Positions 23,418 through 52,200 of a stretch of 64,000 bases of DNA are shown one piece after another (the first letter of the stretch is position 1; each line of letters opens with the position of its first letter). The notes beneath the pieces are model-generated. The model saw only the letters and a list, made by a program, of their open reading frames with translations. It did not search any database and was not told the origin of the DNA. A program made the translations under genes and the position numbers. The stretch comes from Schmidtea polychroa (taxonomy: Eukaryota): NCBI GenBank assembly GCA_044892525.1, contig CM097885.1, positions 19,346,001-19,410,000 on the forward strand, written 5' to 3'.

Positions 23418-24288
23418 CTGGTTGGTATCTAGTTGACAATGCTTAGTACTAGGTATCTAGTTGTTAGCTGGTTGTTAGTACTTAGTTGTTGGTTGTAAGT
23501 AGTTGGTATCTGGTAGTTAGTTGTTAGCTGGTTGTTGGTTGTTAGTACTTGGTAGTTGGTAGCTAGTTGTTAGCTGGTTGTAGCTAGTTAATGGGTAGGT
23601 GGTTGTAGGTACTTGGTAACTGGTTGTTAGTATCTAGTTGTAGGTATCTGGTTGATGTTGGTTGTATGTACTTGGTAGGTACTTAGTAGTTGGTAATTAA
23701 TGCTTAGTACCTGGTTGATGTTGGTTGTCAGTGCTTGGTATCTAGTTGACAGTGCTTAGTACTTGGTATCTTGTAAGTACTTGGTAGCAGGTAACTGGTT
23801 GTTAGTAACTAGTTGTAAGTAGTTGGTTGTTAGTAACTAGTTATAAGTACTTGGTATCAGGTATCTGGTTGTTAGTAACTAGTTGTAAGTACTAGGTAGC
23901 AGGTAACTGATTGTTAGTAACTAGTTGTAAGTGTTTGGTATCTGGTAACATATTGTTAGTATCTAGTTGTAGGTACTTGGTATCAGGTATCTGGTTGTTA
24001 GTAACTAGTTGTAGGTATCTGGTTGTTAATACATGTTCGTAAGTTACTGGTTGTTGGTACTAAGTTGTTGGTTTGTTGTTGAATTATTATTAAAATTTGT
24101 CTTTGAAAAATATTTCATAAAAATTTCCATTAAAAATTACCATTGAAAAATAATTCATTAAAGTTTCTATTAAAAATTACTTAAAAATTATTTCATAAAA
24201 ATTTTCATTAAAAAATTTCAATTCTCAAACACCTTCTATTATTTTGTAATTAAATTTTAAAATCTTACTTTAATTTACTTTAATTTAC
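23418..24288. repeat. Inner part of the right TIR of the outer Polinton
   Basis: Reverse complement of the repeat blocks at 14280-15185. Confidence 0.85.
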
Positions 24289-25239
24289 AGTAGTGTGTAT
24301 ATATACCCAACCCAAACAGCCCTCCCAACAAAAACATACCTCCATTACGCTTAAACCATTAGAAAAACAACATAAAACCTATGCTTTTATAGTATTTTAA
24401 CCCCATATTTTAAACAACAACCACCCTTAATCTTTAAAGCCTCAAACTCAAAAGCTTCAAACTAAAAAGTGAATAGAAAAGAAAATGGCATTATGAAAAG
24501 GTTAGAGGGCTATTTGGGATCAATCAAACTCCGGAGTTGATCTTTATCAGATTATTGATTTTAAATTATATAAATTAAAAAATAAATGAAAAATAGTAAA
24601 ACTGCTCTGAGAGGACAGTGGTATTTTTGTTTTTTTTCACTGTCCTCTCAACAGTTTTTGATCCGGATATTTTTTTTATTTATCAACCTCTTTCGTTTAT
24701 CAAATCTCTTCCAATATACAAGCTGGCCAGACTCATACATCAGAATCAATTCGATAATAGCAGCACACCTTATTATTCGCTTCTCGCTCGAATACGATTT
24801 CATCGGCGTTTTAAGCGTGCTGCTCGAAAGTACAAATGAATTCGAAAGTGAATCCGAAAGAGGTCCGAAAACAACTGAGAAATAAATGTGCACATTAAAG
24901 AATCGATCCGGGGGTGTTCGAAAGACAGGTGGCGATAATTACCGGTTCGCCACCATCACCCGTTTCAATAAGTTTTTTTTCATATTTATGTTTAAAAATA
25001 AAATAATTAATAAAATAAATAAAATAAATAAAATAAATAAAATAAATAAAATAAAATAAAATAAAAATAAATAAAATAAAACATAAATCTAAGATACCCA
25101 CACTATTATTTTCAAATTTTTAATATTATTTTATGTTGAAAAAAAACTAACCACAGTTAGGATTTGAACCACCATCCATTTGAACCACTGTGCCAGTCTA
25201 GCCCACTGCGCTATCTAGGTTTGGATTTTTGTTATTTTT
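24289..25239. repeat. Left TIR of inner Polinton
   Basis: Reverse complement of 38310-39336; they differ mainly in length of the (AATAAAATA)n tract. Confidence 0.95.
25149..25220 (-). ncRNA. tRNA-like Pol III unit in left TIR
   Basis: Mirror copy of 38329-38400: A-box TAGCGCAGTGG, B-box GGTTCAAATCC, oligo-T. Confidence 0.55.
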
Positions 25240-25295
25240 TATACTGTCACATTATGAAAATAAATATAAAAACATAAAAAATCAAAACAGGATAT

Positions 25296-25322
25296 CCAAT
25301 AAAAAATTTTTTTCTAAAAATG
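25296..25322 (+). promoter_or_regulatory. CCAATAAAA-ATG motif (19 nt from CCAAT to ATG)
   Basis: Same spacing at 38062-38088 (+) and 1967-1941 (-). Confidence 0.55.
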
Positions 25323-28300
25323 AATTGTAATATTTGTAATAAAGTTTTTAAAAATAAAACTGGATTAATTTCTCACTTAAAATCGAAAGCTCATTTATTA
25401 AAAGAAAACAATCTTAATGATACAAATTCAAAAGTTTGTCCTAAATGTAAAGGAAGATTTTTACATTCTGGATATAATAAACATTTTGAAAATTGTATCG
25501 GGAAAAATAGAGAAATATTTACATGTTCTCACTGTAACTTTTCAACAAAAGTAAATTTCTATTATTTAGAACATATAAAAGAATGTAAAAATAAAAAACA
25601 AAATTCTGACGATGAGGAATGTCATTCAGAAGGAGAACCTGATCATGTTGAAAGAGAAAAATATAACTGGGATGATTTTAATCATGTAGATGAATTTCAA
25701 TTAGAAATCAATGGACCTATAACTCCTGGAGAATATATAAATAAAAATAAAAAAAATATTAAAAATTCTTTCACTGAAGCTTTAAAAAATTATAACCCGA
25801 CAAGGTATAATGTTATAAAATATAAAATTATAATCAAAGCAAAATACTGGCGAGGAGCAGAAGAAAAGACAACACCTTTAGATGTTGAAATTGGAATACC
25901 CTTTAAATATTTATTTTCAACTAAATGATTTGATAAAACCATCAAAGAAATAATTCAAGCAGTAGAAACAAAACAAGAAGAGGTTGAAAATGAATTAGGA
26001 GATTCAAACTTAGTATTCAACTCTTTCCAAACTTTAGTGATTGATTATTGGAGAGGATTACCACCTAATCCTAAATCTTATATTCCTACACCCTTTAAAT
26101 CTAAAAATGTTATAAACATACAGAATAATGATAACAAATGTTTCGTCTGGTCAATACTTGCACATTTACACCCTCGAGAATCAAACCCTCAAAGAGTTTC
26201 AAAATACAAACAATATGAAAATGAATTAATATTTCCCAAAGGATTCAAACATCCAATGAAACTAGAAGACATTCCAAAATTTGAAAGTTTAAATAATCTT
26301 AAAATTAATATTTATGAACGTGTTAAAGGGAAACATGTTAATAGCAGAGAAATTATTCCAATTTATATTTCAGATTATGAAGTTAGAGATAATGAACCCC
26401 AGGATAACACTAGGGAGATATATCTTTTAATCTTGGAACAACAAAATAATCAACATTATGTTTTAATAAAAAACTTTCAAGCTTTTACATCACCAGAGAA
26501 TCCAATTAGTGGAGGAGGAACATGTAAAAGATGTCTTCATTATTCAACAACTAAAAACTCTATGATTAAACATACAAGATTTTGTGAAAAAGATGATCCA
26601 GCTTTAATTAAAATGCCTAATAATCCCAAGATGTATTTTAAAAACTTTTCAAATTTACTACAAACAGTAGGAGTGCTTTATGGGGACTTTGAATCTATAA
26701 ATCGTAAACAAGATTTGGTTAAACAATATTTAAAAATAATAGAAAAAAATAAACTCATGGATTCCTGGAACTCCCCAGGAGAGAAGATGAAACCAGAGAG
26801 GATGAAAGCCTTTCTAAGAAAAAGGAATAAACCTAATAGTGTTAAAAAAACTAAACAATTACCATCTGCTTATAAATTATTATTTAAAAGTAATTATCCT
26901 GAACTCATAGAATCTAGAGAATAAACATTTCAAGGAATTTCAGAAACAGAAGTCTTGAATCATTTTACTAAAAGTATAAATGATCTAGAACATGAAATAT
27001 TTAAAGTATTAAAAACAAACTATCCTCAAAATATTTCTAATCAACAACAACAAGAATATGAAAACACTTCCAACTGTTGGATGTGTAAACAACCATTTGA
27101 AGAGTCTCCGAATATAAAAGTCCTCGATCATGATCATTTAAAAAAGGAAAATAATTATCGAGGAGCAGCTCATAAAAATTGTAATCTTAATTGTCATACT
27201 CCTAAATTTGTACCTGTTATATTTCATAATCTTTTTGGTTATGACATACATCTATTTATTAAACATTTAGCAGCAAATGCTAAAAACTCTTTCAAAGTTA
27301 TAGGACTTACAAAGGAAAAATATAAATCAGTTGAATATGGAAAATTAAAATTTATAGACTCGTTAAACTTTCTTCAAATGTCTCTAGATGGAATAGCTAA
27401 AACAATGAAACCAGAAGATTTTAAAATCACTCGAGAATTCTTGGAAAAAAGTAATATTCCTCTAGAAGAATATCCTACATGTTTAGCAAAAGGAATATAT
27501 CCTTATGACTATGTTGACTCGTTTGAAAGATATAATGAAACAAGTCTTCCTAGCCAAGAAGATTTCTATTCACAACTTCAAAAAAATCATATTACAAATC
27601 AAGAATATTCTCGAGCAAATAAAATGTGGGAATTATTCAAGTGTAAAACTTTAGGAGAATATACAAGTATGTATTTATCCTTGGATGTTTATATTCTAGC
27701 AGATTGCTTTGAAGAATTTACAAAATCTTTTGTTCTTAAACCTTACAATTATATAACAGCACCCTCTTTAGCTTGGGATACTTTATTATATACCATTTGG
27801 ACTTCAAATATAGAAGAAGCTGATAAAATTATAGATCTTTTAACTAACCTCAGTATGTTTAATCTAATTAAAACAAACATTAGAGGAGGAGTCTCTTCAG
27901 TAATGGGGAATAGAGAAATAAAAGCTAGAAATGAAATAACTACTAGCAGAATGCTTTCAAAGACCTCTGATCCATATATAAAAATTAACAATGAGGAATT
28001 AAAAGAAATATTAGAAACAATGAAAAATCCTATATTTATACTTTATATAGATGCAACAGCTTTATATTCAGGAATTATGACTCAATATTTACCAATAGGT
28101 GATTTCATTGAAATAGAATCATCAAAAGATCTTATAAAAGAAATACTTTCAACACCTAAAGATTCTCCAATAGGTTACTTTGTAGAATGTGACTTATTAT
28201 ATCCAGATGATATAAAATCAGGAACAAGATATTTCCCATTAGCTCCTGTAAGAAGAAAGATTGATATCAACGAACTTTCTGAATGGCAAATCTCACAAGA

Positions 28301-29636
28301 TAAACCTCCAACAATGAAACTTCTTTGTGATCAAACAGATCGAAGGTTTTATCTTTGTCACTATAGACTCCTCCAATTTTATCTTTCACGAGGTATGATA
28401 TTAAAAAAAGTTCATAGTGTCATAAGATTTAAACAGAGGCCATTCATGAAAGCTTTTATCGAGGAGAACATTAGATGTCGAAACATTGCAAAAAGAGAAG
28501 GTAACCTTTTTAAAGATAATAATTATAAACTTTTAAACAATTCAGTCTTTGGGAAGACAATGGAGAATGTTGATAAATATACTCATATTGAACTCCTAAC
28601 TAATACTGCCAAAGATATTAAGCGTTATAATCGTATGCTAGGAAAGCCTACATTTAAAAACGCACAAGTATTTTCTGAAAGTCTTACTGCAATAGAACTA
28701 AAGAGTTTTGAGAAAACATACAACAAACCAATATTTATAGGGTTTTCAATTTTAGAACTTTCAAAATTACAAATGTATGAAACATATTATAACATCTTAC
28801 AACCTATATATGGTTCTAATATATCAATGCATGCAATGGATACAGATTCAATGTTTTTAACAATAAGAACTCATGATTTACAAAGAGATATAGCTGAAAA
28901 TCCTATACTTTCAAATTTAATAAATTCAACTGGAGAATTATTTTCATTTAAAGATGAAAAACCTTTTACTCCTATAGAAAATGGAATATTTATTCGTGCT
29001 AAACAATATTCATACGAAACATTTAAAAACCCTGAATTTATAACCCGAGAAATTATATTTAAAACCCCAGAAAAAGAGGAAATTATTTCATTTAAATATC
29101 CTATATTCCCTAAAGGACCAGAGGGACAAGAAGAAAAACCTGTAAAGGATAACAGATGTAAAGGAATACAGAAATCCGTTGCAAAGAATCTTTCTCATCA
29201 AGATTATATAGATACATTGAATCCAAATCATAAAGATAAAATTGATGAAGTGGATCAGATTAAAAGCGAAAACCATGATATTCACTTGATAGAATCTCAA
29301 AAAGTATCATTATCAAATTATGATGATAAGAGATTCATCCTAAGTGATTTAAAGACAACTCTTCCTATAGGAAATAATTTAATACTGATAATAAAAAATC
29401 TTGCTAGTTTGAATAAGTTATATGATACAAAGATTACTGATCTTGATATTTATAATGTTGAAATCATTTATCCCGAGAGAGAAATCGAGAAGCCTTTATA
29501 TTCTCAAGTTTTTAATCCTATACGTATGGAACTTAAATATTTTAATACTGATCCTGAATATATAAAAGGTCTAAGTGATAAAGAATTTAAAGATCATAAA
29601 TTAATGATTCAAAGGTTGGCTTTCAACGATATTTAA
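25320..29636 (+). pseudogene. Protein-primed DNA polymerase B (~1438 codons, two in-frame stops) with N-terminal C2H2 fingers and an HNH/endonuclease VII-type insert
   Basis: ORFs 25320, 26037 and 26955 share one frame (TGA 25926, TAA 26922). Motifs YGDFES, CWMC..DHDH..YRGAAH..CN, FHNLFGYD, KGIYPYDY, YIDATALY, KLLNNSVFGK, MDTDS, YDDKR. Confidence 0.95.
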
Positions 29637-29714
29637 TTTTTTAATAATAAAATGTCGACAATTAATTTAAGCAACTATAGCAACCTGATCTACTTTTTTA
29701 AAAATACACCCATT

Positions 29715-30323
29715 TTATAAATAAGAATTCTTTAACCATTTCTCCCGTTTAATTTTTTTAGAATATTCATTAGTTATAACATTAGCACTTTTTAATCTAT
29801 TAATATTATTTTTAATATCTTGTATTATTTGATTTGATTTCATTATTTCATCATCAGTTAAGATTCCATCTTCCAAAGCTTTTAATTGAAATAAAAATAA
29901 TTTAGAGATTCCTAATTCTATTGACAAACAAACTTCACGATATAAACTTTTCTTTTTTGAAGTATAAGATAATGAAACTATTTCAGTTAAGAAACCATCA
30001 GCTACAGAAATACTTCCAAGTATTACTGGCGCAAGTGTTAAAACTGGTAAAGTTATAGGTAAAATAACTGTTAATATTGCAGATGCAAATCCTAAAGAAT
30101 AACCTATAACTTTTAAAACTGTATTCCCTTTATTCCATCTATTTTTAATTTTTTTATAATGCTTTAATAAATCTTGTAAATGTAAGGTTTCTGATTTAAA
30201 TTCTTTTACTCTCATAATTTCAAGTTCTGTGGGAGCTGAAGGTCCCGAAGGTCCCGAAGGTTTGGGGGAATAATATCCTGATGACAATTCTGGGTAAACT
30301 TTTTCTTCTCTTACTTCTTCCAT
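29715..30323 (-). CDS. Polinton membrane protein (coiled coil plus hydrophobic hairpin)
   Basis: Intact 202-aa ORF; VIGYSLGFASAILTVILPITLPVLTLAPVILGSISVA. Confidence 0.7.
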   Translation of the reverse strand: MEEVREEKVYPELSSGYYSPKPSGPSGPSAPTELEIMRVKEFKSETLHLQDLLKHYKKIKNRWNKGNTVLKVIGYSLGFASAILTVILPITLPVLTLAPVILGSISVADGFLTEIVSLSYTSKKKSLYREVCLSIELGISKLFLFQLKALEDGILTDDEIMKSNQIIQDIKNNINRLKSANVITNEYSKKIKREKWLKNSYL

Positions 30324-30331
30324 TTTAATAA

Positions 30332-31309
30332 TTAAAAAAATAAGATTTTATTATCTGGTACCAATACTCGGATATCATAAGAGACTCTTGTTGAGAGAAT
30401 GTCTTTATACAATTCCATCAATGTTTTACGAACTTCATCAACATCAACCTTTTTTTCATAAAATATTAAATCTATATATTGTACAAGTGTGCTTTTAAAA
30501 ATAATATTCTTACTTTTAACTTTATGTGTTTTATGTGAATCAGTTTTATCATGCCAATATCCATGTGTTAAATCATAACCACTTATTATAACATCACCCT
30601 TTTCAAACTTACTATTATAATCACATTTCACAAACCATTTCATTCTTTCATTATCATCATCAAATAAAAAGAAATAAGGATCAATAATCTTTACAACCAT
30701 AAAAACACTCCATTCTTTACTATTTGTTGTTATTAAACTTGGTTCTATAAAATGTTTATATGTATGGGGTAATAATGTTTTATTCTGTTCTAATTCAGCA
30801 GCTCTTTTTCTAATACTATGTGTGGTGTTAATGTGTGTTGTATGAGATTCTAAATTTGAAAGTCATTTATTAAATGATGTAATCATCTCATTTATTATAT
30901 TATATATTGTATTAAATTTAGTATTCATAATTTGTTTATCTTTAGAATTTAATATACTAGTATTTAACTTTACAACTTGTTCAGTTAACAGACTTTGTAA
31001 CTTGTCAAATTTATCATTAAATCGTTGTTCGATATTATTAAGCTTTGATTCCATTGAATCAATTTTTGTTGTTAATGAACTTTCAATTCTTGTTGTTGTT
31101 AAATCAGTATAATTTTTATTAGCAGCATCACCTTCATCAATTGGTAAAGATAAATCTTTTATCTTGTGTCCATTTAAATTTAAAACTCCCTTCATTGAAT
31201 CACCTCTTTCATTAATATATTTATTTTCTGTTAAAGTTAATATTTCTTCTGTATTAAACCCTGTTTTTATTGTTCCACCACCTCTATTACAAGGAATATA
31301 AGAACTCAT
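30332..31309 (-). pseudogene. Putative fiber/spike protein with one in-frame stop
   Basis: ORFs 30863-31309 and 30332-30700 are in one frame with an open linker after the TGA. GDSMKGVLNLNGHKIKDLSLPIDEGDAANKNYTD is a tail-fiber-type motif followed by a coiled coil. Confidence 0.6.
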
Positions 31310-31349
31310 TTATTAATAATTTAAAATGGACGGAGTCCCCTGAGAGGAA

Positions 31350-32087
31350 CTAAACCTGTTTCAAATGTAAATACATTGAAATCTCTTCTCCATTAAAATC
31401 AATCAATTCTCCTTCTTGATTAAGAATTTTAAAATTAATATCCATTATATATTTTCTACATAAAGGTAAATAATTTGGAGGATTCATTCTTTCAACTATT
31501 TTATATCCCATAGGAACTGTGTTTGAGGGAAAGGAATATAAAATATTACTTTGTTTACCATTATTATAAGAACCTGTTATACAATCGCAATGAATATTTA
31601 TTGTGTTTGTATTTATTATTTTTATAATATTTTCTGATGTAACTTCAGGTGTGGTATAATGGTTTTGTGTAAATCCTAAAATTGTTCTAAAGAAACTATT
31701 ATTTTGAAACCTAAGTCCTATATTCTTTCAAGTCATTATACATTTTGAAGTTGGTAAATCTATTTTAATTTCAATAGCTCCATTTGTTTTTTTAGAAAGT
31801 ATATTATTTAAATCTTATATCTTATAAGCCCCGGGTTCTATTATTATTATGTTATACTCCGTTTTTGGGGGGCTTACATAACTAAATGTGTTAATATCTT
31901 TAGTTATATTAAAAATAGTATTATAAGCACAAAACCATAATAGACCTAATTCATAATTTAAATTTTGATCTAATTTTATTGAATCTTCAAAATTTATAGT
32001 AAAGTCTGATTCTTTTGAATTTATAGATAAAGTTCTTGAATATTTATCTGACATTATGTTTACCATTTTTTTAAAATTATCTTCCAT
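31350..32087 (-). pseudogene. Minor capsid protein (penton), disrupted
   Basis: YNTIFNI...IEPGAY, then past stops ILGF, INIHCDCITGSYNNGKQSNILYSF, GYKIVE..PPNYLP, NQEGELIDFNGEEISMYLHLK. Confidence 0.85.
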
Positions 32088-32090
32088 TTC

Positions 32091-32576
32091 TTATAGTAGA
32101 GATTTTAAATCATTATAAATTTCTTGGATTAAGGAAGTGAAACAGTAGTCCCCTTTGGACAGAGTCCCTTGAGATTTATTCAATCTATACAAAACATATA
32201 AGCTTAAAATACCACATATTTTAGTATTATTAGGTTGAACTTGTAAAGAATTAAAAGTATAGTCTCTCTTCGAGCTTACTCCGGACAGATAGTCTTCAAC
32301 TTCTTTAGTGGGTTTAATCCCAAAAGAATCAAAGTAGATTGGGACTTCGTCCATATATATACAAACCCAATGAGATCCTTTTTCATTTGAATTTTGATAA
32401 TTGATTATTATATTCTTTGGAGTGACCCTTTGACCTTTGACCTTCGGACCTTTCAATTCATTATTCATTAATATTTTTATTTTTAAATTTAAATAATCTG
32501 CATAATCTTTTAAATCAAAATTTGTTTTTGCATTTATTCCAAATGTTTTTAAAAAATCTAATATTGAAGGAGTCAT
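32091..32576 (-). CDS. Adenain-like cysteine maturation protease
   Basis: IIN...GSHWV, YFDSFG, Q....ICG; intact ORF. Confidence 0.9.
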   Translation of the reverse strand: MTPSILDFLKTFGINAKTNFDLKDYADYLNLKIKILMNNELKGPKVKGQRVTPKNIIINYQNSNEKGSHWVCIYMDEVPIYFDSFGIKPTKEVEDYLSGVSSKRDYTFNSLQVQPNNTKICGILSLYVLYRLNKSQGTLSKGDYCFTSLIQEIYNDLKSLL

Positions 32577-33418
32577 TTTATATACTTATTAAATTTATCT
32601 TTTGAAATTATTCCTTGTTTTAACAAATCTTTAGAAATCTTTAAAATATCAGAATCTAAATTATTATGTCCTGCTTTTTTAGCTGCTAATAGTTTTCTTA
32701 ATTCAATAAAAAGATTGATTGGGTTTGCAGCCACAGGCATCCCCTTACCCTCTGTAACAACATAACCCCTTTCATTTTTATTTAAATAATTCTTTAAATC
32801 TTGAATATGTTTTGCTTTAGAACTACCATGTATTAATTTTATTAAGTTTAAAAATTTATCAATTTCTTCTTTCTTAACATCATCTGGAAGATATCCAGAA
32901 ATTAATCCATGAAAACCATCTGAAAGTTCAATGTCTACACGCTCTCTATTCATAAAAGTATTTGTTGAAATAATCGCTGGATTATTTTTTGAATTTAAAT
33001 ATATATAAAATTTTTGATTATTAATTGTTATTGTTTGAAAACCTCTAGGATCATAACCTATAGTAGGTATAATTGATTTAGCTAGTGATGTATTAATTTT
33101 AAAATTAACTGGAGTCTTAAGAGGTGTTAATCTTGAAAGAAATTCATCTTCTTCTAAATCAATAGTATTTCTACGTTTTCTTAAACCCATTAATCTTGAT
33201 AATTCCTTTTCAGAAGGTTCTATAGCTTTAAGTTCAGGGGTTAGAGGAGTTTCTATAGTTTTAAGTCCCTCTATAGCTTTAATTGTTGGCCCCTGTTGTT
33301 GTGTTATTACCTCATTTAATATTATAGATTCAGCATGTTGAGTTGTATCTTTTTTATTATATTTATCTTGTTCTGATTGTAATTTTTTTAAAAGTGCTAA
33401 TCTTTCTTCATATACCAT
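32573..33418 (-). CDS. Conserved Polinton protein of unknown function (possible core protein)
   Basis: Intact 281-aa ORF; C-terminal GKG...LRKLLAAKKAGHNN motif typical of this gene slot. Confidence 0.65.
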   Translation of the reverse strand: MVYEERLALLKKLQSEQDKYNKKDTTQHAESIILNEVITQQQGPTIKAIEGLKTIETPLTPELKAIEPSEKELSRLMGLRKRRNTIDLEEDEFLSRLTPLKTPVNFKINTSLAKSIIPTIGYDPRGFQTITINNQKFYIYLNSKNNPAIISTNTFMNRERVDIELSDGFHGLISGYLPDDVKKEEIDKFLNLIKLIHGSSKAKHIQDLKNYLNKNERGYVVTEGKGMPVAANPINLFIELRKLLAAKKAGHNNLDSDILKISKDLLKQGIISKDKFNKYIK

Positions 33419-33440
33419 TTTTATGGTATTAAAAATGGTA

Positions 33441-34052
33441 TCAATGGGGTTCGAAGGGCTTCAAGTATAAACCTTTACCATTTTTAGTTTTACAAAGGCA
33501 TCCATTCTTTAAAGATTTACATATTTTTTTTAAATCATCTTTATCTTTTGAAGATAAAGATTCAGATGTAGAAATTTGATTTTTTAAGAAATCATTTAAA
33601 CCTCTACCTTTATAAGGATCAAGATAGAGACCCTTTCCCTTGGACAGAGTCCCCTGAGACTTTTGACCTTCAGACAGAGTCCCCTCATATGGATTAAGAT
33701 AGAGGCCTTTTCCCTTAGCTTGCCCTACCTTCTTCATTGAATCGATTTCAGTTTGTAGTTTTTCTTTTTCTAGGTCTGTCTTTTGAGATTCTTTATCTTT
33801 TTGAACTGTAGTTGCAATTCCTCCAGCTATTCCAGCAGCACCTGATAAACCAGCAATGATTGCAGGTATTAAAGCAGCTAATGGAAGAATGCCGCCTTCT
33901 TTAGTCGAAGAGCCCTTCAGCTTCGCTCTAACTTGTTCTTTTACATGTTTTCCAATAAAATATTTTTTACCATCAATTACTACTGATTTATTTTTATTTG
34001 AATTTATTAATTCTTGCAAAGATTCTTCAGTAGAGGAACTCTTCGAGGTCAT
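33441..34052 (-). CDS. Adenovirus pX-like core protein
   Basis: EGGILPLAALIPAIIAGLSGAAGIAGG resembles the adenovirus pX GG-cleavage/hydrophobic helix; repeated GKGLYL.P motifs. Confidence 0.65.
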   Translation of the reverse strand: MTSKSSSTEESLQELINSNKNKSVVIDGKKYFIGKHVKEQVRAKLKGSSTKEGGILPLAALIPAIIAGLSGAAGIAGGIATTVQKDKESQKTDLEKEKLQTEIDSMKKVGQAKGKGLYLNPYEGTLSEGQKSQGTLSKGKGLYLDPYKGRGLNDFLKNQISTSESLSSKDKDDLKKICKSLKNGCLCKTKNGKGLYLKPFEPH

Positions 34053-34067
34053 TTTACAATAAATAAA

Positions 34068-34880
34068 ATGGATGTACGAAGTCCAAAAATTTGGAAACCA
34101 ATTTTAAATAGACATAAATCTAAATTTAATAATAAAGTATTTCCTGATAATTTTAGATTATTAATTGTTGGATCTTCTGGATGTGGAAAGAATGTACTTG
34201 TTTTGAAAATGTTACTTGAAGATGGTTTTTTAGATTATAATAATTTAATCTTTTATTCTACAACCATAAATCAACCAGAATTACAACTTTTGAAATGTGG
34301 ATTTGAAAATAAATTAACTAAAAAAGCTATAATTGATATTTTTAAAAATCAACATAGATGTCCTGAAGAGGTTTTTCAACCTTGTGATATGGTTGATTGG
34401 TATAAGGAAAAGATTTTAGAATCAGATATTAGTAATAAAAATGATTACATCTGTGAAGATGAGGGGCAGGCAGAGGCGATTCAAGTTTTATTCTCTAATA
34501 AACCTGAAGATGTTTTACATTGTGATTTACTTCCTAAAGATAAAAAGAATCTAGTTATATTTGATGATGTTGTTAACATGAAAAATCAAGAGATTCAAAA
34601 GAGTTACTTTACAAGAGGAAGACATAATAATTGTAATGTTATTTATATATCTCAAACTTATTATGCTTTAGATAAAAACTCTATAAGAAATAATTCTAAT
34701 TGTTTTAAATTTTTTAAATTAGATCGCCGTGATAAGAATATGATTTATAATGATTTATTTTCAAATGTTGAACCTGATAAGAATATGTTTGATATGTTTG
34801 TTGATAATCATTGGAGAGAAAAATATAATTATATTTATTTGGATAGAGAAGAAGCTGAAATATGGAAAAGTGTTTTTTAG
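34068..34880 (+). CDS. A32/FtsK-like genome packaging ATPase
   Basis: Walker A GSSGCGKN, Walker B VIFDD, RGRH, ISQ, IRNN; start placed at MDVRS after AAAATG. Confidence 0.92.
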   Translation: MDVRSPKIWKPILNRHKSKFNNKVFPDNFRLLIVGSSGCGKNVLVLKMLLEDGFLDYNNLIFYSTTINQPELQLLKCGFENKLTKKAIIDIFKNQHRCPEEVFQPCDMVDWYKEKILESDISNKNDYICEDEGQAEAIQVLFSNKPEDVLHCDLLPKDKKNLVIFDDVVNMKNQEIQKSYFTRGRHNNCNVIYISQTYYALDKNSIRNNSNCFKFFKLDRRDKNMIYNDLFSNVEPDKNMFDMFVDNHWREKYNYIYLDREEAEIWKSVF

Positions 34881-35670
34881 AAATCTGTTTTCTGTAACTC
34901 ATTATTATAAAATCTACCTAATATTTTTTCATTATTTAAATCAATAATGCTATATTGTATAATTTATTTTATTTATAATAAAAATTTCATTTGTCCATTT
35001 TGCTGTGAATCCTTTTTCAAATTTATTTTTATATTTAAATATTCTTACTCGGTCACCAATTTTAAACTTTGGTTTTTCAATAACATCATTTTCAATATTT
35101 ACCACTTTAATGGTTTCAGGATTTATGGAAGCATTTAAAGGTGTTGATTTTATAGAACTATGTACATCATTATTATATTCATTTACAATCTTTTGTAACA
35201 ATTCATTGTTCCATTTTTGTTTTCCAATAGCCGTAAAATATTTCCACATTTTATTTTTTAATGTTCTATTTAATCTTTCAACCACAACTGCTTTTCCTTC
35301 GTTTTCTGTTGAATATAATTTAATATCATTTTCATTTAAAAACTTTGTAAAAACTTTGTTATAAAATTCTGTTCCTTTATCACACCATAAATATTTTGGA
35401 ATTCTTTGATGTTCTTCAAATATATTTTCAAATGCTTCTGTAATTGAATATCCTGTTTTGGTTTCTAAACGTCTTGCAAAAGCAAATCTCGTATATAAAT
35501 CTATTACTGTTAAAATTATTTTATATTTTTCAGGGTCTGATGATTTGGTTGGCATAAAGACTAAATCTGCATGTTTGATCTTTTTCATGTACTTGAACTT
35601 TTAAATATTTTTTATTTTTTCTAAATTCATGGTGTAATTCGTTGGCATATTTTTTTTGTGATTCTGTTGG
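34878..35670 (-). pseudogene. RVE integrase (frameshifted, no chromodomain)
   Basis: YANELHHEFRK, ADLVFM, LTVIDLYTRFAF, WCDKGTEF, VVERLNRTLK, KFKIGDRVRI, then frameshifted GRFYNNELQK. Confidence 0.92.
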
Positions 35671-36239
35671 GGTAATAAACTAGTCTTGGATATATTCTCG
35701 AGGGATCTTTCAGCATCTGCTTGTTCAATAATCTTTTTATTAGCAACATCTTTTGCCATCCTTGGTAAACTAGCACCTATGAAAATCTTACCTTTCATTG
35801 CTAATTTAACTAGAGCTCTTTGAATCTTTTCTTGGGTTGATGGATTTTGGATACTATTTAAATCATGTATTAAATTAACATCTGCAACATGTCTATCTCT
35901 AAGATCTTCTGAATTGTAAGCAATATCATGTTTTAAAGCTGCTTGGTCGATTCTATTTATTGGTTCTTCTCCTTGTTTGGGATTATTATTTTCATCTAAT
36001 CTAATATCTAATCTTGTTCCTGGTCCGGTATAGTTGTGTTTAAATAAATGTCTTTCACCTGGATATTTTTCTGTAGTAAAAGGTTTTAATATTGAAGATG
36101 TCACTTTTGAAGATTGTAGGTCGCCTCCGGCTCGTGGAATCATGTCGCCTCCTATATGTTTTTTAGTTTTTAGATGACTTGCTTTATGATGTCTTGTAAC
36201 TTGACAATTACAACTTTCATATCTCCAATAGAGAGACAT
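35601..36239 (-). CDS. Parvovirus-type phospholipase A2 domain protein (probably the N-terminus of a PLA2-integrase fusion)
   Basis: HNYTGPGT (Ca-binding loop) and NRIDQAALKHDIAY (catalytic HD); N-terminal C-x-C...H...H finger. Confidence 0.85.
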   Translation of the reverse strand: MSLYWRYESCNCQVTRHHKASHLKTKKHIGGDMIPRAGGDLQSSKVTSSILKPFTTEKYPGERHLFKHNYTGPGTRLDIRLDENNNPKQGEEPINRIDQAALKHDIAYNSEDLRDRHVADVNLIHDLNSIQNPSTQEKIQRALVKLAMKGKIFIGASLPRMAKDVANKKIIEQADAERSLENISKTSLLPQQNHKKNMPTNYTMNLEKIKNI

Positions 36240-36256
36240 TTTAAAATGTTAAAATA

Positions 36257-37548
36257 TTAAGAATCTCCCCTAACATTTTCGATTATTGAAATCTTTCCAC
36301 CATATAATTTCATTTCTATTTTCTTTTCTTTTCTTCTAATATTAATGTATATACTTTAGCTTTAAAATTAGAATCCTTTGTTACATGAAGTGTAACATCA
36401 ACATTATTTATGGCTAGGCGATCATCTTGGTCTGAAACATTTATACAAAATATAGAATATAAATTTTTGAAATCTTCTAAACTTAATTGCGGTTCAACTT
36501 TGAAATCATAACATGTTTCAATATAATTTAGATATGGGAATATGTTTTCATTATTTTCAATATTAAATTCCATTCTATTTATTGGATAATAAGAACTATT
36601 TAATTGAATTTGGATTGTTTTTAAATTATCAACTCCAATCTTTTGAATAAACAAGTTGTTATTTTTTTGGAAAGATGAATCTACTTCTTTGAATCCAATC
36701 AAGATATATCTTGGTCGGTATGCTAAATTTGCTACCTTTATAGAATATGTTGAACCCTCTGTCATACTAAATTCACTACAGATTCTATTTAAATAATTTA
36801 CATTTATAGACTTGTTGGAATTTAATCTTTCAAGGAGTTTGATTTCAGAATGTGGATTTAATGTCCATTCAGGTATATGCAATTCAAGTGTTGATATTTT
36901 TAATTTAGCTGTTGTATCCTTATCTCCATAGAACAATCTTTTATCACCTTCTACTCTATTACAAACTAATTCTATAAAAACATTATTAAGTATACGATTA
37001 TAGTTTTGAAGGAATCCAAACTAGTGTTTTAATTCAAAATAACCTTCAAATTTTTTAGATTTATAAAGTTCAGCTCTTTTATAGTAACCATAATTTATAT
37101 CTAAACCATCTTTTTCTAAATCTCCTTTATTAACATCAGGAATCCAGCCTGTTAATTCACCATATTCATTTTTATAATCACAACCAGTCAAAATAAAATT
37201 TAACATTGTAGAATATACTCCGGGATGCAAAACAGTTTCAATTTCTGATGATCCTAGTTTTAATCTCATGTTGGAGAATAAATTTGGAAAGAAATTATTT
37301 TCTAGGGTTAGATCTTTGTTTGCTTCAATTTCTAATTCGATTTTATAATATAATTTGGCATTACAAATATCTATAGGGTTTGATGTTTGAAGAGATTGAA
37401 AAACTATATCACCCCTACGATTTAAGTTTGCAATAGATCCTGAAGTTGGTGAGATTTTAAGTACATCATTTTTCTTGATTTCATGAGTAAATTCTTTATT
37501 ATAATCAAGATTTAATTTATTTTTTTCTTGAATTTTTATATTATTCAT
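36257..37548 (-). pseudogene. Major capsid protein (double jelly-roll), one stop plus C-terminal frameshift
   Basis: ORFs 37021-37548 and 36316-36936 are in one frame; NLNRRGDIVF, NNFFPNLFSNMRL, RPRYILIGF, LNSSYYP, YSIFCINVSDQ. Confidence 0.8.
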
Positions 37549-37604
37549 TTTTATATATTAAAATTTACACACACAAAATAGGATTAATTAAATATATTAT
37601 GTAA

Positions 37605-37677
37605 GCCATTATAGCGGAGTGGGAATAGGCTTCAATTTTATCACCGGAGTACCGGGTTCAATTTTCGATTTTGGTCA
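37605..37677 (+). ncRNA. tRNA-like Pol III unit 1
   Basis: A-box TAGCGGAGTGG at 37612, B-box-like GGTTCAATTTTC, GCCA/TGGT end pairing, T7 run just downstream. Confidence 0.45.
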
Positions 37678-37848
37678 ATTTTTTTCGATATTTTCTTTTT
37701 CAACGGAATTTGATTCAGCGTACTGATTTTAGTATATATTTAAATTTTCAGATGGATCTGAGTGGAAGTTGTCGAGAAAATGAATAATTAATTATTAATT
37801 TCATCAATAAATAGTCACACATTAACAACTTATTTTATATTGAGTATA

Positions 37849-37920
37849 GCTCTAATAGCTTAGTGGTAATAGCACTGGACTGCATTGCCAATACCAATGG
37901 GTTCAAATCCCATTTCGGTC
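37849..37920 (+). ncRNA. tRNA-like Pol III unit 2 (Cys-GCA-like)
   Basis: A-box TAGCTTAGTGG, D-stem GCT/AGC, TGGA-CTGCATT-GCCA arm, perfect T-arm ATGGG-TTCAAAT-CCCAT, TTTT downstream; weak acceptor stem. Confidence 0.6.
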
Positions 37921-38085
37921 ATTTTCTTTCAAATCTTTTTTAACGAAATATTGATCAGCATACTCGATTTAGTACTTGTACAAATTTTTAAGGAGATTGG
38001 TCAACGGCAACTCTTGGAAATTTAAGATCAAAAACGTTTTAACTACCAAAAATTAATATATCCAATAAAAAAAATATTTATAAAA

Positions 38086-38351
38086 ATGGATGAGTTAAAA
38101 GAATGAGAAATGAATTGAATGAAGTTAAACATAAGAGAATGAAAAGAAGAGAAGAAGAACCATTAGAATACATCAAAGAGTTGATGGTAGATAATGAAAA
38201 GTATCGACATTTTTATATGAAGGCTGTAGATGTTGCTGATATAAGATTGAAGAAAATGAAACAATTACAGGAAAGAGTTAAAGAACTTGAATCGATTATT
38301 TATAGTCTAAAAAATAACAATAATCCAAACCTAGATAGCGCAGTGGGCTAG
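38086..38351 (+). pseudogene. Small coiled-coil protein, 1-nt frameshift after MDELK
   Basis: ATG 38086 follows the CCAAT-N19 motif; ORF 38103-38351 continues in a shifted frame. Confidence 0.5.
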
Positions 38352-39336
38352 ACTGGCACAGTGGTTCAAATGGATGGTGGTTCAAATCCTAACTGTGGTT
38401 AGTTTTTTTTCAACATAAAATAATATTAAAAATTTGAAAATAATAGTGTGGGTATCTTAGATTTATATTTTATTTTATTTTTTTTTATTTTATTTTATTT
38501 TATTTTATTTATTTTATTTATTTTATTTATTTTATTTATTTTATTTATTTTATTTATTTTATTTATTTTATTTATTTTATTTATTTTATTTATTTTATTT
38601 ATTTTATTTATTTTATTTATTTTATTAATTATTTTATATTTAAACATAAATATGAAAAAAAACTTATTGAAACGGGTGATGGTGGCGAACCGGTAATTAT
38701 CGCCACCTGTCTTTCGAACACCCCCGGATCGATTCTTTAATGTGCACATTTATTTCTCAGTTGTTTTCGGACCTCTTTCGGATTCACTTTCGAATTCATT
38801 TGTACTTTCGAGCAGCACGCTTAAAACGCCGATGAAATCGTATTCGAGCGAGAAGCGAATAATAAGGTGTGCTGCTATTATCGAATTGATTCTGATGTAT
38901 GAGTCTGGCCAGCTTGTATATTGGAAGAGATTTGATAAACGAAAGAGGTTGATAAATAAAAAAAATATCCGGATCAAAAACTGTTGAGAGGACAGTGAAA
39001 AAAAACAAAAATACCACTGTCCTCTCAGAGCAGTTTTACTATTTTTCATTTATTTTTTAATTTATATAATTTAAAATCAATAATCTGATAAAGATCAACT
39101 CCGGAGTTTGATTGATCCCAAATAGCCCTCTAACTTTTTCATAATGCCATTTTCTTTTCTATTCACTTTTTAGTTTGAAGCTTTTGAGTTTGAGGCTTTA
39201 AAGATTAAGGGTGGTTGTTGTTTAAAATATGGGGTTAAAATACTATAAAAGCATAGGTTTTATGTTGTTTTTCTAATGGTTTAAGCGTAATGTAGGTATG
39301 TTTTTGTTGGGAGGGCTGTTTGGGTTGGGTATATAT
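38310..39336. repeat. Right TIR of inner Polinton (last 10 bp missing)
   Basis: Ends GGGTATATAT; ACACACTACT is absent. Confidence 0.93.
38329..38400 (+). ncRNA. tRNA-like Pol III unit 3 in right TIR
   Basis: A-box TAGCGCAGTGG (38336), B-box GGTTCAAATCC (38379), ACC/GGT ends, T8 at 38403. Confidence 0.55.
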
Positions 39337-41057
39337 GTTAATACATGTTCGTAAGTTACTGGTTGTTGGTACTAAGTTGTTGGTTTGTTGTTGAATTATT
39401 ATTAAAATTTGTCTTTGAAAAATATTTCATAAAAATTTCAATTAAAAATTACCATTGAAAAATAATTCATTAAAATTTCTATTAAAAATTACTTAAAAAT
39501 TATTTCATAAAAATTTTCATTAAAAATTTTCAATTCTCAAACACCTTCTATTATTTTATAATTAAATTTTAAAATCTTACTTTAATTTACTTTAATTTAC
39601 TTATTTAAAATTTTTTACCATTGATTACTTAATTTAAAAATTATTACTTTAATTTACTTATTTAAAATTTTTTACCTTTGATTACTTAATTTAAAATTTG
39701 GACCTTAATTAACTTTAATTTAATTTTTAGAACCTTAATTTACTTTAATTTAAAAATTTGGACCATTATTTACTGTAATTTAATTTTTAAGAACCATAAT
39801 TTACTGTAATTGAAAAATTTGAGCCATAATTTACTGTAATTTAAAAATTTGAGCCATAATTTACTGTAATTTAATTTTTTAGAACCATAATTTACTGTAA
39901 TTTAATTTTTTAGGACCATAATTAACTGTAATTTAATTTTTAGACCCATTACTTACTGTAATTGAAAAATTTGAACCATAATTTACTGTAATTCAAAATT
40001 TTTGACCATAATTTACTGTAATTTAATTTTTTAGAACCATTATTTACTATAATTGAAAAATTTGGACCATAATTTACTGTAATTCAAAATTTTTGACCAT
40101 AATTTACTGTAATTTAATTTTTAAGAACCATTATTTACTGTAATTCAAAAATTTGAGCCATAATTTACTGTAATTCAAAAATTTTGACCATAATTTACTT
40201 TAATTGAAAAATTTACCACGTTTTTTAGTGTATACCCCTTTTTCTCAGGACCAAGGAGACCCACCTTAATTTAATTCGAAAAATCCATGCTTTTTTATTG
40301 ATAGTCGGATTTTTGTATTGAAAATATCCTGAGACCTTAAATTACCATGCTTTTTTATTGAAGACCGCCTTTTTGTATTGAAAAAATCCTGAGACCTTAA
40401 ATTACCATGCTTTTTTATTGAAGACCGCCTTTTTCTATTGAAAATCCCAGGACCAAGGAGACCCCCTCACTATAGTCAGAATAATCCATGCTTTTTTATT
40501 GAAGACCGCCTTTTTCTATTGAAATTCTCAGGACCAAGGAGACCCACCTCACTATAGTCTGAAAAATTCCATACTTTTTTAGTGGTAGTCGGATTTTTGT
40601 ATTGAAATTCTCAGGACCAAGGAGACCCCCTCACTATAGTGTGAAAATTCTATGCTTCTTTAGTGGTAGTCGGATTTTTGTATAGAAAAAATTTTTTTTG
40701 TATTGAAAATCCCAGGACCATCGAGACCTCCTCACTATAGTCTGAAAATTCCATGCTTTTTTAGTGGTAGTCTGATTTTTGTATTGAAAAAAATTTTTTG
40801 TATTGAAAATCCCAGGACCATCGTTTTTGTATTGAAAAAATTTTTTTTTGTATTGAAAATCCCAGGACCATCGTTTTTGTATTGAAAAAAATTTTTTTGT
40901 ATTGAAAATCCCAGGACCATCGAGACCCTCTCACTATAGTGTGGAACAATTGCGTAATAAAACAGTTGCCGCAAAAAAAAAGTTGCCGCAAAGAAAAAGT
41001 TGCCGCAGGGGGTGGGAGGGGGGGGGGTTTGCGGCAGTGGGCTCCTAACTACCTACT
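39337..41057. repeat. Outer part of the right TIR of the outer Polinton
   Basis: Reverse complement of 11678-11720 plus 13390-14500 with different repeat copy numbers. Confidence 0.9.
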
Positions 41058-48201: not shown

Positions 48202-48521
48202 TGTAGTGAGCCATTACACGGCCTTAACAATATCTATATACCTATTATACTATATTATATTATATTATATTACATTATATTATATATATATATATATATA
48301 TATAAATGCGCGGTCACCAACGAACAAGGACCAATCAGAACACAATTATAGTCAATCAAAAGTCGTGCGATCAGCTAATACTTCTACTTATCAATCAGGC
48401 TCTATTAATCAATCTCAGACGAGTAAAGCAAATTCGATGCCATGTTATCATTATCAAGATAAACTGTATTCGGCTCCCAATAGTTTTAGTGTTGGCTCTC
48501 ATAGACCAACACTCTCATCCA
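48202..48521 (+). repeat. 5' LTR (last bases and PBS deleted)
   Basis: Begins TGTAGTGAGCC; matches 52744-53049 up to CTCATCCA, then runs directly into gag. Confidence 0.9.
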
Positions 48522-49229
48522 GAACCTACAGCTGCCGTCTTCACTAAATACTTTAAGACGCAAACTTTGGGCAGCAGAAAACCATCACAGTTCTTGCAAC
48601 ACGCTATGGCGGAACGAACGCAAATACATCCGGAGGCTGCGGCGGATCAAAAACTCTTGAGGCATTTTTTTCTGTCTGCTTTACCGCCACACGCACAACA
48701 AATTTTAGCGCTTTCGTCAAGAGCAGACGTGGTAGAGCTAGCAAAGATGGCCGACAAGATTAACGAAGTCGTGCCACTTGGTCCGCAACCAACTTGCTCT
48801 GTGCAGTTAAGTAGCAGTACTAACCCCGAAATTTTACCTTCTTCTTCTTCTTCTTTAAAACCTTCGACCGAAGAAGCCTTACTTTGCGCTATTACAGGCC
48901 TCACTAAACGCATCAGCGAGCTTGAGAATAGCATGTCCACCAGGCGGACAAATGACGACAGGCAATATGCCCAAAAATCACACTTTGTGCAAAATACTCT
49001 TCAACGTTCACCTTTCCCTGCAACCAGGAACCTGTGCCGTTTCCATTTTAAGTTTCGTAACAAGGCACGGTTCTGCCATCTAGGTTGCAATTGGCGAGAT
49101 AAAGCACCATCCTGTCAGATACTTGACAAATGTATATACCACGACAGGTTTGGAGATAAAGCCTTAAAATGCTTCGAAGGCTGCTCCAATTACAAAAAAC
49201 CTAAAGCAAGCAATCAAAAAAACTTCTAA
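48522..49229 (+). pseudogene. Gypsy Gag, N-terminus deleted
   Basis: LGSRKPSQFL, LAKMADKI, two C..H..F...A..C...C boxes. The N-terminal part of the predicted ORF 48306 is LTR sequence. Confidence 0.85.
49217..49223 (+). promoter_or_regulatory. -1 ribosomal frameshift slippery site A AAA AAC
   Basis: In gag frame two codons before the TAA; pol lies in the -1 frame. Confidence 0.7.
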
Positions 49230-52200
49230 TGCCACCACTTCTAGCGGCAGAGGTGGGAGGCAAAATTTCATCAAAATCAGATTTATTTTTAATAGAAGTA
49301 CAGTCAAACGCTTTTAATATATTGTCATCTCCTTCCAACAGACTAAAATTCCTCGTCAACACTGGCTCCAGCTTGTCGATCTTACCTAAAGTGTACCTTC
49401 CAGACCTCAACACTGTCGATATTTCTTTGAAGGCCGCAAACGGTAGTGTTGTTGAGACTTTAGGTTCAAAGACAATTGCTTTCTCGTTGCCATTTCTGTC
49501 CGACCAATTATTTGAGTGGAAATTTTATATAGCAGAGGTTATTATCCCCATATTAGGATCTGATTTTTTAAGCGCTAACGAACTACTCGTCGATTGCCGT
49601 GGACGCACTTTAAGGATAAATAACCAATTAAACTGCAGCACTATTCCCTCAAACATCTTTGAAGATCCACAACGGATAGGAACGGACGATATAAATACTA
49701 CTCCGTCGAAAACGGTTATAACAATCGAACACCCAAAAATAGCCGTAGATATTATTAATCGGTGTTTTAACACGCCAATAAGTGACGTTTCGAAGCCGCT
49801 TTACTGCCACACGATCGACACAACTTCATCTTTACCAGTTAGATGCAAAATTAGACCACTGTCGAATGAAAAACTCGAATTTGTACGTTCCGAGTTCACT
49901 AACCTCTTACATGAGGGTACCATTCGGAGATCTAAATCTCCATGGTCATCGCCATTGCACCTGGTCCCAAAAAAAGATGGCACTTTCCGTCCGTGTGGCG
50001 ACTATAGAAACCTTAATGCTATTACGGTACATGATTCCTATAGCATGCCGCTTGTTAGTGATATCCTTCACCGTCTTTCAAAGGCAAAGATTTTCTCCAC
50101 AATCGACCTCGTGAAGGCGTACCATCAGATACCCGTGCGAGAGTCTGACATAGAAAAAACAGCCGTAATAACTCCGATCGGACTTTTCGAGTACGTGCAT
50201 ATGCCATTTGGCCTTCGGAATAATGCACAGACCTTTCAAAGGTATATTGATCAAGTTTTAATGGACCTGCCTTTCGCAGTTCCATATATAGACGACATTT
50301 TAATCGGATCACCTGACTTAGAGACGCATATAACCCATCTAACAAGAACTTTAACAGCACTGCGGCAATACAACCTTAAGGTAAACGTCGATAAGTGTAC
50401 CTTCTTCCAACACGAGACTCGTTTCCTGGGACATTTAATTTCCGGAGATGGAATCCGACCTCCTCCGGATAGACTAGATACTATAGCCAAATTCCCACTT
50501 CCAAAAACAGTTTCACAACTGAGAAGTTTTTTGGGAACGATAAACTATTGTCATCGTTTTATTCCAGGGGTTTCTGACATTTTGTCACCTCTTTCAGGTC
50601 TTGTTTCAAAACCAAAAAAGTCTTTAGTGTCATGGAGCGATACCACACTCAGTGCATTTGAAAACGCTAAGTCGGCACTTTCGAAAATTCAAACACTCCA
50701 TTTTCCCAATGCTGATTTACCTTGGAGTCTGACCACTGATGCATCAAACGTTGCTATTGGTGCAGTATTACACCAATTACATAATGACATTTCTGAACCC
50801 TTAGAGTTTTTCTCAAAGAAACTTTCTTCCGCACAACGGAAATATTCGGCTTTCGACCGAGAACTCTTAGGCATATATCTTTCAATCAAACATTTCAAGC
50901 ACTTGCTTGAAGCTCGTCCTTTTGTCATCTACACTGACCACAAACCGCTAACTTATCTTTTTGGAATGAAAGACCCATCTCCACGACAACAGAGGCAAAT
51001 CAGTTATATTTCAGAATTTTCTTGCGAAATACGCCACATTGCCGGCAAAGAAAACGTTATTGCAGACTGTCTTTCCCGCAGTACCAACGCTATATGGCAC
51101 GATCCGATATTTCCAGTACAGTGCCTCCGCGACAATCCACCTTCGACAAAAGATCTAGCTGCTTTTGGCGATAAGCTTAAAATCGTGGACGGAGTACACT
51201 TTGACTCGTCTTTATCAGGTGTTTTAAGACCGATTTTGCACGATTCCTTACGGAAATTAGCTTTCCACTCCATTCACGACTTACATCATCCAGGTTCGTC
51301 GGCTACCTTCAACCTATTGCATTCACATGTGGTTTGGCCAGCAATGAGGCACGATATTAAATTGTGGGTGAGTCAGTGCATCGGTTGTCAACAACACAAG
51401 ATCACTAGACACACTAAGCCACTGATGATTCACTATCCGACCGGAAATAGGTTCGAAATTCTTCACATCGACCTGGTCGGCCCCTTGCCTTCTGATCGCG
51501 GTTTTTCTTACTTATTAACCATGATTGACCGGAAAACGCGTTGGTTTGAGGTTATTCCTCTAAAAAACATTTCTGCTGAAATTGTAGCAAATTCAATTTT
51601 GCAACATTGGATTTCTAGATACGGTGTTCCGAAATCAATAATCACAGACAGGGGAACTCAGTTTGAATCCCAGTTATTTCAACAACTAACTGAAAAGCTC
51701 GGTATACAACACCTCCGTTCAACTGCTTACCATCCTCAGACAAACGGCATGATCGAAAGATTTCACCGTACTTTGAAGACTTCTCTAGGAATACTTTCAT
51801 CGAGACTTAATTGGACTAAAGCTTTACCTTTTGTCCTTCTTGGTTGGCGTAACACACCCTCCAGGACTACCGGAACTACACCGGCACAGTTACTTTTCGG
51901 TTCTTCAACATCGTTACCTAACGAATTAGTTGATTTCGATAACGCTCCTACCTTTGAGGAATTAGATATGGCTAGAGATCATTTTCTTTCGATCGATAGC
52001 AACCCACAGTTTTCTTATGCTTCCTCATATACACCGTACGTCCCAAAGTCCTTCAAGGACGCAACTCACGTTTATCTTCGTAATATTAGGGATTCAGGTC
52101 TCAAACCGAGATATTCGGGCCTTACAAATTGATCGACATTAAGGATAACAATGCTCACATCGTTATTAACGGTGTTACCCAAAATATAAATTTGTGCCGA

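Follow-up and report, generated by a model that had tools for sequence, protein, structure and literature searches.

Pol III RNAs of DNA viruses and the Polinton cassette

RNA polymerase III (Pol III) transcripts that act in counter-defence are a hallmark of infectious DNA viruses, as in the VA RNAs (about 160 nt long), EBERs and TMERs. SINEs derived from tRNAs have a tRNA-like head with A and B boxes and a T-rich end. The VA RNAs of adenoviruses are described as having an internal A-box/B-box promoter and as acting mainly on PKR (PMC3643585), which is reported to be limited to vertebrates and absent in invertebrates (PMC5666893). The tRNA-miRNA-encoded RNAs (TMERs) of murine gammaherpesvirus 68 (PMC8223928) are reported as a cluster of eight at a genome end, with non-aminoacylated tRNA-like heads, an alternative terminator and downstream stem-loops (PMC4337559). 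Genes for tRNAs are known from polinton-like viruses (PLVs) of protists, where they are read as a codon supply (PMC12220804), and have been flagged in non-PolB MELD viruses (PMC8502044). In a literature search covering titles and abstract openings, with Repbase, subscription papers and supplements outside its scope, we found no paper describing Pol III RNAs from animal Polintons. The first-pass annotation of this locus knew of no description of such RNAs in Polintons. For animal Polintons this agrees with the literature searched, but it has to make room for the tRNA genes of the protist viruses.

The locus is a Polinton/Maverick of the adintovirus type, with a PLA2 domain, at positions 24289..39336 (unstranded) of the window, by which we mean the whole 64-kb stretch of DNA analysed (GC content about 27%). 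It was recognized by its Pfam domains, inverted repeats and ends. Among the 16 ORFs scanned in this interval we found pPolB, A32 ATPase, rve integrase, PLA2-like and DJR capsid domains, but no TBP domain; the genes that define a Polinton (PF03175, PF00665, PF04665 and PF21738) are all present in this copy, several of them in broken frames. The terminal inverted repeats (TIRs) are about 1 kb long and include a 790-nt inverted repeat of 98% identity. The family has the long TIRs beginning AGT and the 6-bp target duplications of Polintons, the duplications being seen by eye at two end pairs (L163/L164 and L169/L170). In place of a 6-bp target duplication, the window copy has a 264-bp direct duplication on its flanks (24025-24288 and 39337-39600; 260 of 264 positions identical). 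The last few terminal bases present at its left end are absent from the right.

The family is young and very abundant. In the genome searched (781 Mb, four large contigs), all 40 of the matches listed for 37560-38420 are 97-100% identical to it, the 150 capsid matches listed are all 97-100% identical to the capsid query, and there are more than 1,000 copies. An ATPase search of viral contigs found no relatives outside this genome, and neither the exact long-unit head nor the unit-3 pattern (both described below) matched any viral contig. A capsid search of metagenomes gave one short, weak MCP locus, and ATPase homologues of up to 92% were found on short contigs. A second, diverged Polinton (70-90% nucleotide identity; also L052, L051 and L072), interrupted by insertions, runs leftwards out of the window at 1-1971, and its capsid end is without tRNA-like units. 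Further integrase-like matches and a 967-aa ORF, at 15206-15550 and 48306-52132, probably belong to other mobile elements.

Head-to-head with the major capsid protein gene (36316..37548, minus strand; two open frames in the window copy) lies a cassette of three short units, numbered 1 to 3, and an adjacent long unit, which is the outermost. The feature is real and borne by the element, and it is a putative cluster of Pol III non-coding RNAs of a viral type. Its three short units are the weaker part, and the long unit is the more interesting one. With adenovirus VA RNAI and VA RNAII the cassette shares the internal A/B-box promoter, the setting of a pPolB-lineage virus and, in the long unit only, a structured RNA that could load Dicer. 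It differs from them in size, the short units being about half as long and the long unit more than twice as long, and in position, since VA genes are mid-genome whereas unit 3 and the long unit are in the TIRs. The proposal that the three 72-nt units are VA RNA analogues is not supported by this comparison: their size and fold are wrong, the VA model (terminal stem, central domain, apical stem) gave no Rfam VA hit up to E = 10 on 37560-39100, and the main target of VA RNA, PKR, is reported to be vertebrate-only and absent in invertebrates.

In layout the cassette appears closest to the gammaherpesvirus TMERs, which it resembles more than it does VA RNA. Both are clusters of tRNA-like type-2 Pol III units at a genome end, and the long unit is TMER-like in its tRNA-like head, weak terminator and long stem-loops, with heads that do not look chargeable. 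As a sequence layout, this combination of head, downstream stem-loops and alternative terminator is seen in the long unit and not in units 1-3. The Polinton units differ in being integrated in an invertebrate-type genome and in having no sequence relation to TMERs; moreover, downstream hairpins occur in one of the four Polinton unit types, and its head is refolded into an 8-bp hairpin instead of a cloverleaf. The long unit would nevertheless be a much better VA/TMER-like candidate than the three short units.

Anatomy and conservation of the short units

Using a generic A-box plus B-box pattern we found exactly four sites in the window: 37612-37661, 37856-37906 and 38336-38385 on the plus strand, and 25164-25213 on the minus strand. 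The pattern was absent from all 500 dinucleotide-shuffled versions of the element, and 100 shuffles of the window contained it 0.02 times on average. These sites bear out the three units of about 72-73 nt that had been annotated at 37605, 37849 and 38329, together with the mirrored unit 3 of the left TIR (the minus-strand site). The diverged tandem duplication said to contain units 1 and 2 is also present and measures 244 bp.

The layout of a type-2 Pol III gene (A-box, B-box at tRNA spacing, oligo-T) is clear for units 2 and 3. Unit 1 (37605..37685, plus strand) has an A-box at 37612-37622, a degenerate B-box from 37655 and a T7 run at 37679; it is doubtful as an RNA gene because there are T4 runs within it (at 37636, 37662 and 37669) and its B-box lacks the conserved C. 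Unit 2 (37849..37925, plus strand) is like a tRNA pseudogene, resembling tRNA-Cys(GCA) from the D loop to the anticodon; pairing is complete in its T arm (5/5) and partial in the acceptor (5/7) and anticodon (3/5) stems, and it has U at position 37. Unit 3 (38329..38410, plus strand, in the right TIR) has an A-box at 38336, two GGTTCAAA cores (38363 and 38379) and a T8 run at 38403, and the second, internal GGTTCAAA occupies the place of the anticodon arm. Its mirror in the left TIR, identified from the inverted repeat and the A/B pattern, is at 25140..25220 (minus strand). Fold z-scores for units 1, 2 and 3 are 0.49, -2.15 and 0.13, so two of the three fold no better than shuffles. An 82-aa ORF at 38103..38351 (plus strand), which at the right end runs into the first bases of unit 3 with its final codons, has no Pfam hit; it has homologues in L056, L059, L060 and L068, and the one in L059, a locus without units, is broken.

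Checking the units against tRNA models, as the first-pass annotation had suggested, gave a divided answer: unit 2 scores 38.3 bits on the Rfam tRNA model (gathering threshold 29), but the other units have no Rfam tRNA hit at E ≤ 10, and ARAGORN calls no tRNA in the 64-kb window. We regard it as very improbable that the units are functional tRNA genes with a role in codon supply, the role proposed in the PLVs of protists. The Rfam score of unit 2 and the existence of tRNAs in PLVs (PMC12220804) would fit that explanation, and both cases are tRNA-derived cargo in a Polinton-type element. However, an intact cloverleaf and a purine at position 37 are missing (unit 2 has 2/7 acceptor and 2/5 anticodon-stem pairs broken, and U37), and the host already has about 1,000 tRNA-Cys-pattern and 1,700 tRNA-Asp-pattern matches. 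PLV tRNAs are reported as tRNAs, whereas the Polinton units are decayed, fail ARAGORN and lie in or beside the TIRs.

The host tRNA-Cys and tRNA-Asp genes sit in tandem arrays. We located host tRNA arrays at C1:269.25 Mb (L075-L084), C1:157.9 Mb (L176-L179), C4:76.66 Mb (L021-L043) and on C140/C333 (L044-L050). The arrays are very large–the Cys array has a 281-bp period and 997 pattern matches, and the Asp plus Gly array has a 398-bp period and 1,733 matches, the tRNA-Asp matches coming from a looser, window-derived pattern because two first patterns gave none. There are further arrays of tRNA-Lys (424 bp) and tRNA-Arg (278 bp). When the units were compared to host tRNAs of these four isotypes (Cys, Asp, Lys and Arg), the previously noted likeness of unit 2 to tRNA-Cys(GCA) held for the stretch from D loop to anticodon (and for the T loop), but not for the whole unit, where tRNA-Lys scores 50 and tRNA-Cys 49-52. 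We rejected capture of the spacer of the host tRNA-Cys array as a source, because the spacer in its 281-bp repeat is no more like the flanks of units 1-3 than shuffles are.

The units are found throughout the family. There are 1,228 exact matches to a unit-2 34-mer in the genome, and 3,103 matches to the unit-3 pattern. For each pattern we checked the 30 loci that come first on contig C1, a sample that may miss rare free copies in other places, and found a Polinton context at all 30 unit-2 loci and all 30 unit-3 loci, some of which are deletion derivatives. Unit 3 is also present on 28 of 30 ends chosen by their terminal motif alone (one of them the window's own), and a strict pattern applied to the 20 closest copies detects units 1, 2 and 3 in 16, 19 and 17 of them, respectively. 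The attribution of the units to the Polinton is thus upheld, and extends beyond this copy. The objection that the first-pass annotation raised against its own claim, that the units are the heads of a dispersed host tRNA-SINE inserted only in this copy, has almost no probability left. Their tRNA-like head with A/B boxes followed by a T-rich end is as in SINEs, but they are copied only with the Polinton: none of the 60 loci is free-standing with target duplications of its own, and unit 3 is in both TIRs.

We examined variation in unit 3 among 75 copies that were chosen without use of the unit-3 pattern, defining a shared change as one seen in three or more copies. Shared changes fall at 2 of the 22 box positions and at 19 of the 51 others (P = 0.022, a recount with corrected box limits; the first test, with the B-box window one base off, gave 3/22 versus 18/51, P = 0.09). 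There is no shared change in either GGTTCAAA core or in the T run. A search for cloverleaf covariation in unit 3 found 5' and 3' end variants in mixed combinations, and because these variants mix freely we conclude that no acceptor stem or cloverleaf is maintained. The promoter and terminator of unit 3 are preserved from lineage to lineage, but its stems are not, and to this extent the claim that the boxes are kept was correct. In the mechanism proposed below, unit 3 would be a maintained promoter-terminator module with an accessory role.

A pattern of kept boxes and drifting stems, with two invariant GGTTCAAA cores, could also mean that occupancy by TFIIIC and Pol III at both ends is itself the function, forming a chromatin barrier or positioning signal that shields the copies, with any RNAs as by-products. 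We consider this explanation unlikely, although several observations suit it: unit 3 is at both ends and is doubled in tandem in 6 of the 8 carriers among ATPase-picked loci (see below). Planarian Polintons are reported to be repressed by PIWI at the chromatin level (PMC8532177), and the present host is probably a planarian too, to judge by its genome size, four large contigs and low GC content. TFIIIC sites are reported to act in fission yeast boundaries (PMC4502379). Like TFIIIC-bound B-box boundary elements, the Polinton has a cluster of B-boxes at the edge of a silenced domain, but its units are complete (A-box, B-box and terminator) and are on a mobile element. Against a barrier, the T8 terminator of unit 3 is as invariant as its boxes and would be needless in a pure binding site, and the conserved G-U-rich stems of the long unit are left unexplained. 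Furthermore, piRNA silencing nucleates within the element, where barriers at its ends are of no help.

The long unit in the terminal inverted repeats

The units named in the first-pass annotation were all found, but that annotation overlooked a longer unit in the same orientation, at 38675..39046 (plus strand) in the right TIR. Its mirror in the left TIR is at about 24589..24960 (minus strand), as placed by the symmetry of the 790-nt inverted repeat. The unit consists of a tRNA-Asp-like head followed by long hairpins. In the head there is an A-box at 38683-38693, a variant B-box at 38726-38735 (A at 54) and an 8-bp hairpin at 38681-38707, all on the plus strand, and a weak T4 run follows at 38764. 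Three long hairpins are predicted at 38811-38876, 38878-38938 and 38977-39037 (plus strand), and T4, T5 and T6 runs lie at 39034-39058. The head is closest to tRNA-Asp, scoring 39 (39 of 76 positions identical) as against 19-21 for host tRNA-Cys, -Lys and -Arg, and it has GTC in the anticodon register.

The fold z-score is -7.78 for the long unit and -3.07 when the opposite strand is folded. No Rfam family corresponds to the long unit, and the Rfam miRNA hits are at chance level, far below cut-off. A search for antisense targets of the long RNA within the element gave only A-rich or 10-11-nt chance matches.

For a pairing test, the fold predicted from the window copy alone was applied to 94 copies. 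Four main stems were picked after viewing the alignment, namely the 8-bp head hairpin and the three long hairpins. In these stems the pair is kept in all 10 changes shared by at least three copies but in only 6 of 34 private changes (P = 3 x 10−6); two-copy changes keep the pair in 1 case of 7. Taking all predicted pairs of the long unit, 13 of 16 shared changes keep the pair versus 16 of 55 private ones (P = 3 x 10−4). The minus-strand control also has an excess, partly due to indel artefacts (11/18 versus 14/53, P = 0.011). A G-U state is involved in 9 of the 10 pair-keeping shared changes, and therefore the plus strand is favoured. We conclude that conservation of the main stems among replicating lineages is shown statistically. 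Two-sided covariation was seen at one pair only, in an alignment of 24 representatives of 91 distinct copies, and 357 of 500 shuffles reach that number.

The position of the hairpins inside the TIR allows another explanation: they may act as single-stranded DNA, in strand-displacement replication, packaging or integration, with the tRNA-like heads incidental. The sole fully compensated pair is part of a near-perfect inverted repeat that DNA template switching could maintain as well, and the minus strand also folds better than shuffles. We nonetheless judge this role to be quite improbable, because sister lineages without units replicate with much shorter ends that lack the long-unit hairpins, and because the structure starts at the A-box, stops at the T runs and is spanned by presumed RNA contigs.

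These contigs come from sequencing runs that we presume to be RNA, and they show neither strand, ends nor level. Those from two studies (runs X1 and X2; runs X7 and X8) cover 38680-39045, and in run X8 the sole contig on 37560-39200 spans 38728-39011, inside the long unit. Contigs pile up near 38690-39020 in presumed RNA runs, while a probable DNA run is flat. The 5' edge of the long-unit cover abuts a skipped repeat, and loose A tails on some contigs may be variants of a genomic A-run. Taken together, this is a weak hint that the long unit is transcribed. Runs X1 and X2 also cover unit 3 (38330-38439), perhaps in part from mRNA of the 82-aa ORF. Over units 1 and 2 the contig cover is thin, which is not evidence of silence, and none of the 13 contigs of run X10 could be placed.

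Distribution among lineages and a proposed mechanism

We surveyed the distribution of the cassette in 20 stretches of the genome, comprising 19 around ATPase matches of a diverged query and the window's left neighbour. Unit 3 is present in 8 of them, as a tandem pair in 6 of the 8, and 2 of the 8 have units 1 and 2 too. In another 7 the capsid gene is present but the end has no unit of any kind, and the remaining 5 are uninformative, so the cassette is missing from 7 of the 15 informative ATPase-picked loci. In a capsid tree of 29 of the 60 available sequences, the unit-less L064 and L072 nest among carriers, and L072 is the sister of carrier L138 (support 100/99). Given seven unit-less lineages, two of them nested among carriers, we infer that ends have been swapped or lost as modules and that the cassette is dispensable.

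Dispensability is what would be expected if the units were neutral passengers, that is, captured tRNA pseudogenes that hitchhike on the element, are homogenised by conversion between TIRs and have leaky A/B-box transcription in 1,000 or more copies. Units 1 and 2 (45 and 39 copies) each have shared changes at 0 of 73 positions inside and 5 of 168 in the flanks, and because they are young with no shared variation within them, selection on them cannot be judged. They are probably recent duplicates that are decaying, and with the internal T4 runs and broken B-box of unit 1, and the thin contig cover of both, neutrality is most likely the best reading for units 1 and 2 alone. Extended to the cassette as a whole, it is an unlikely one. 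The conservation of unit 3 is biased towards its boxes, the long unit combines a z-score of -7.8 with lineage changes that preserve its stems, and hairpins this long are not left-overs of tRNAs.

The explanation that we prefer, tentatively and with a little less than even confidence, is that the Polinton has a Pol III cassette of tRNA origin, and that the long multi-hairpin RNA is its working product and acts on dsRNA or RNAi factors. Its starting point is that the units are borne by the element, all face outward and are carried by one lineage group. They would derive from host tRNA genes, as suggested by the partial likeness of the long-unit head to tRNA-Asp and of unit 2 to tRNA-Cys and tRNA-Lys, with the cloverleaf since lost. 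The A and B boxes would be bound by TFIIIC, which would recruit host Pol III. If Pol III stopped at the T8 run after unit 3, the RNA would have about 80 nt plus a leader; on the long unit Pol III may stop either at the weak T4 run (about 95 nt) or past the hairpins (about 370 nt), as in TMERs. The main stems of the longer product are those whose conservation has statistical support, and this product, predicted to be the main one and about 370 nt long, would serve as a decoy or a small-RNA precursor for the host dsRNA/RNAi machinery. A bolder version, which we find somewhat unlikely, is that an animal Polinton independently evolved a TMER/VA-like arsenal, in which captured tRNA genes became Pol III promoters at its ends and an abundant 370-nt multi-hairpin RNA driven by one of them jams or feeds the Dicer/Argonaute or PIWI defence and so helps the element to exceed 1,000 copies.

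If true, a 'transposon' would encode a counter-defence RNA and would offer a living model for the origin of adenovirus VA RNAs from tRNA. To find such a cassette, apparently under selection, in an integrated animal Polinton would strengthen the case that Polintons have a viral way of life, and the change from captured tRNA gene to regulatory RNA could be seen under way. The idea can be put to a direct test, since the genome contains sister lineages both with the cassette and without it, and RNAi tools are likely to exist for this type of host.

The ends of the unit-less lineages have a structure of their own. In L054, L055, L058, L059, L064 and L072 there is an end block of 200-300 bp just past the capsid start, bounded by AGTAGT...ACTACT, and with its own inverted terminal motif it resembles a small self-contained element. 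An inner motif near position 38444 of the window resembles this AGTAGT...ACTACT end motif.
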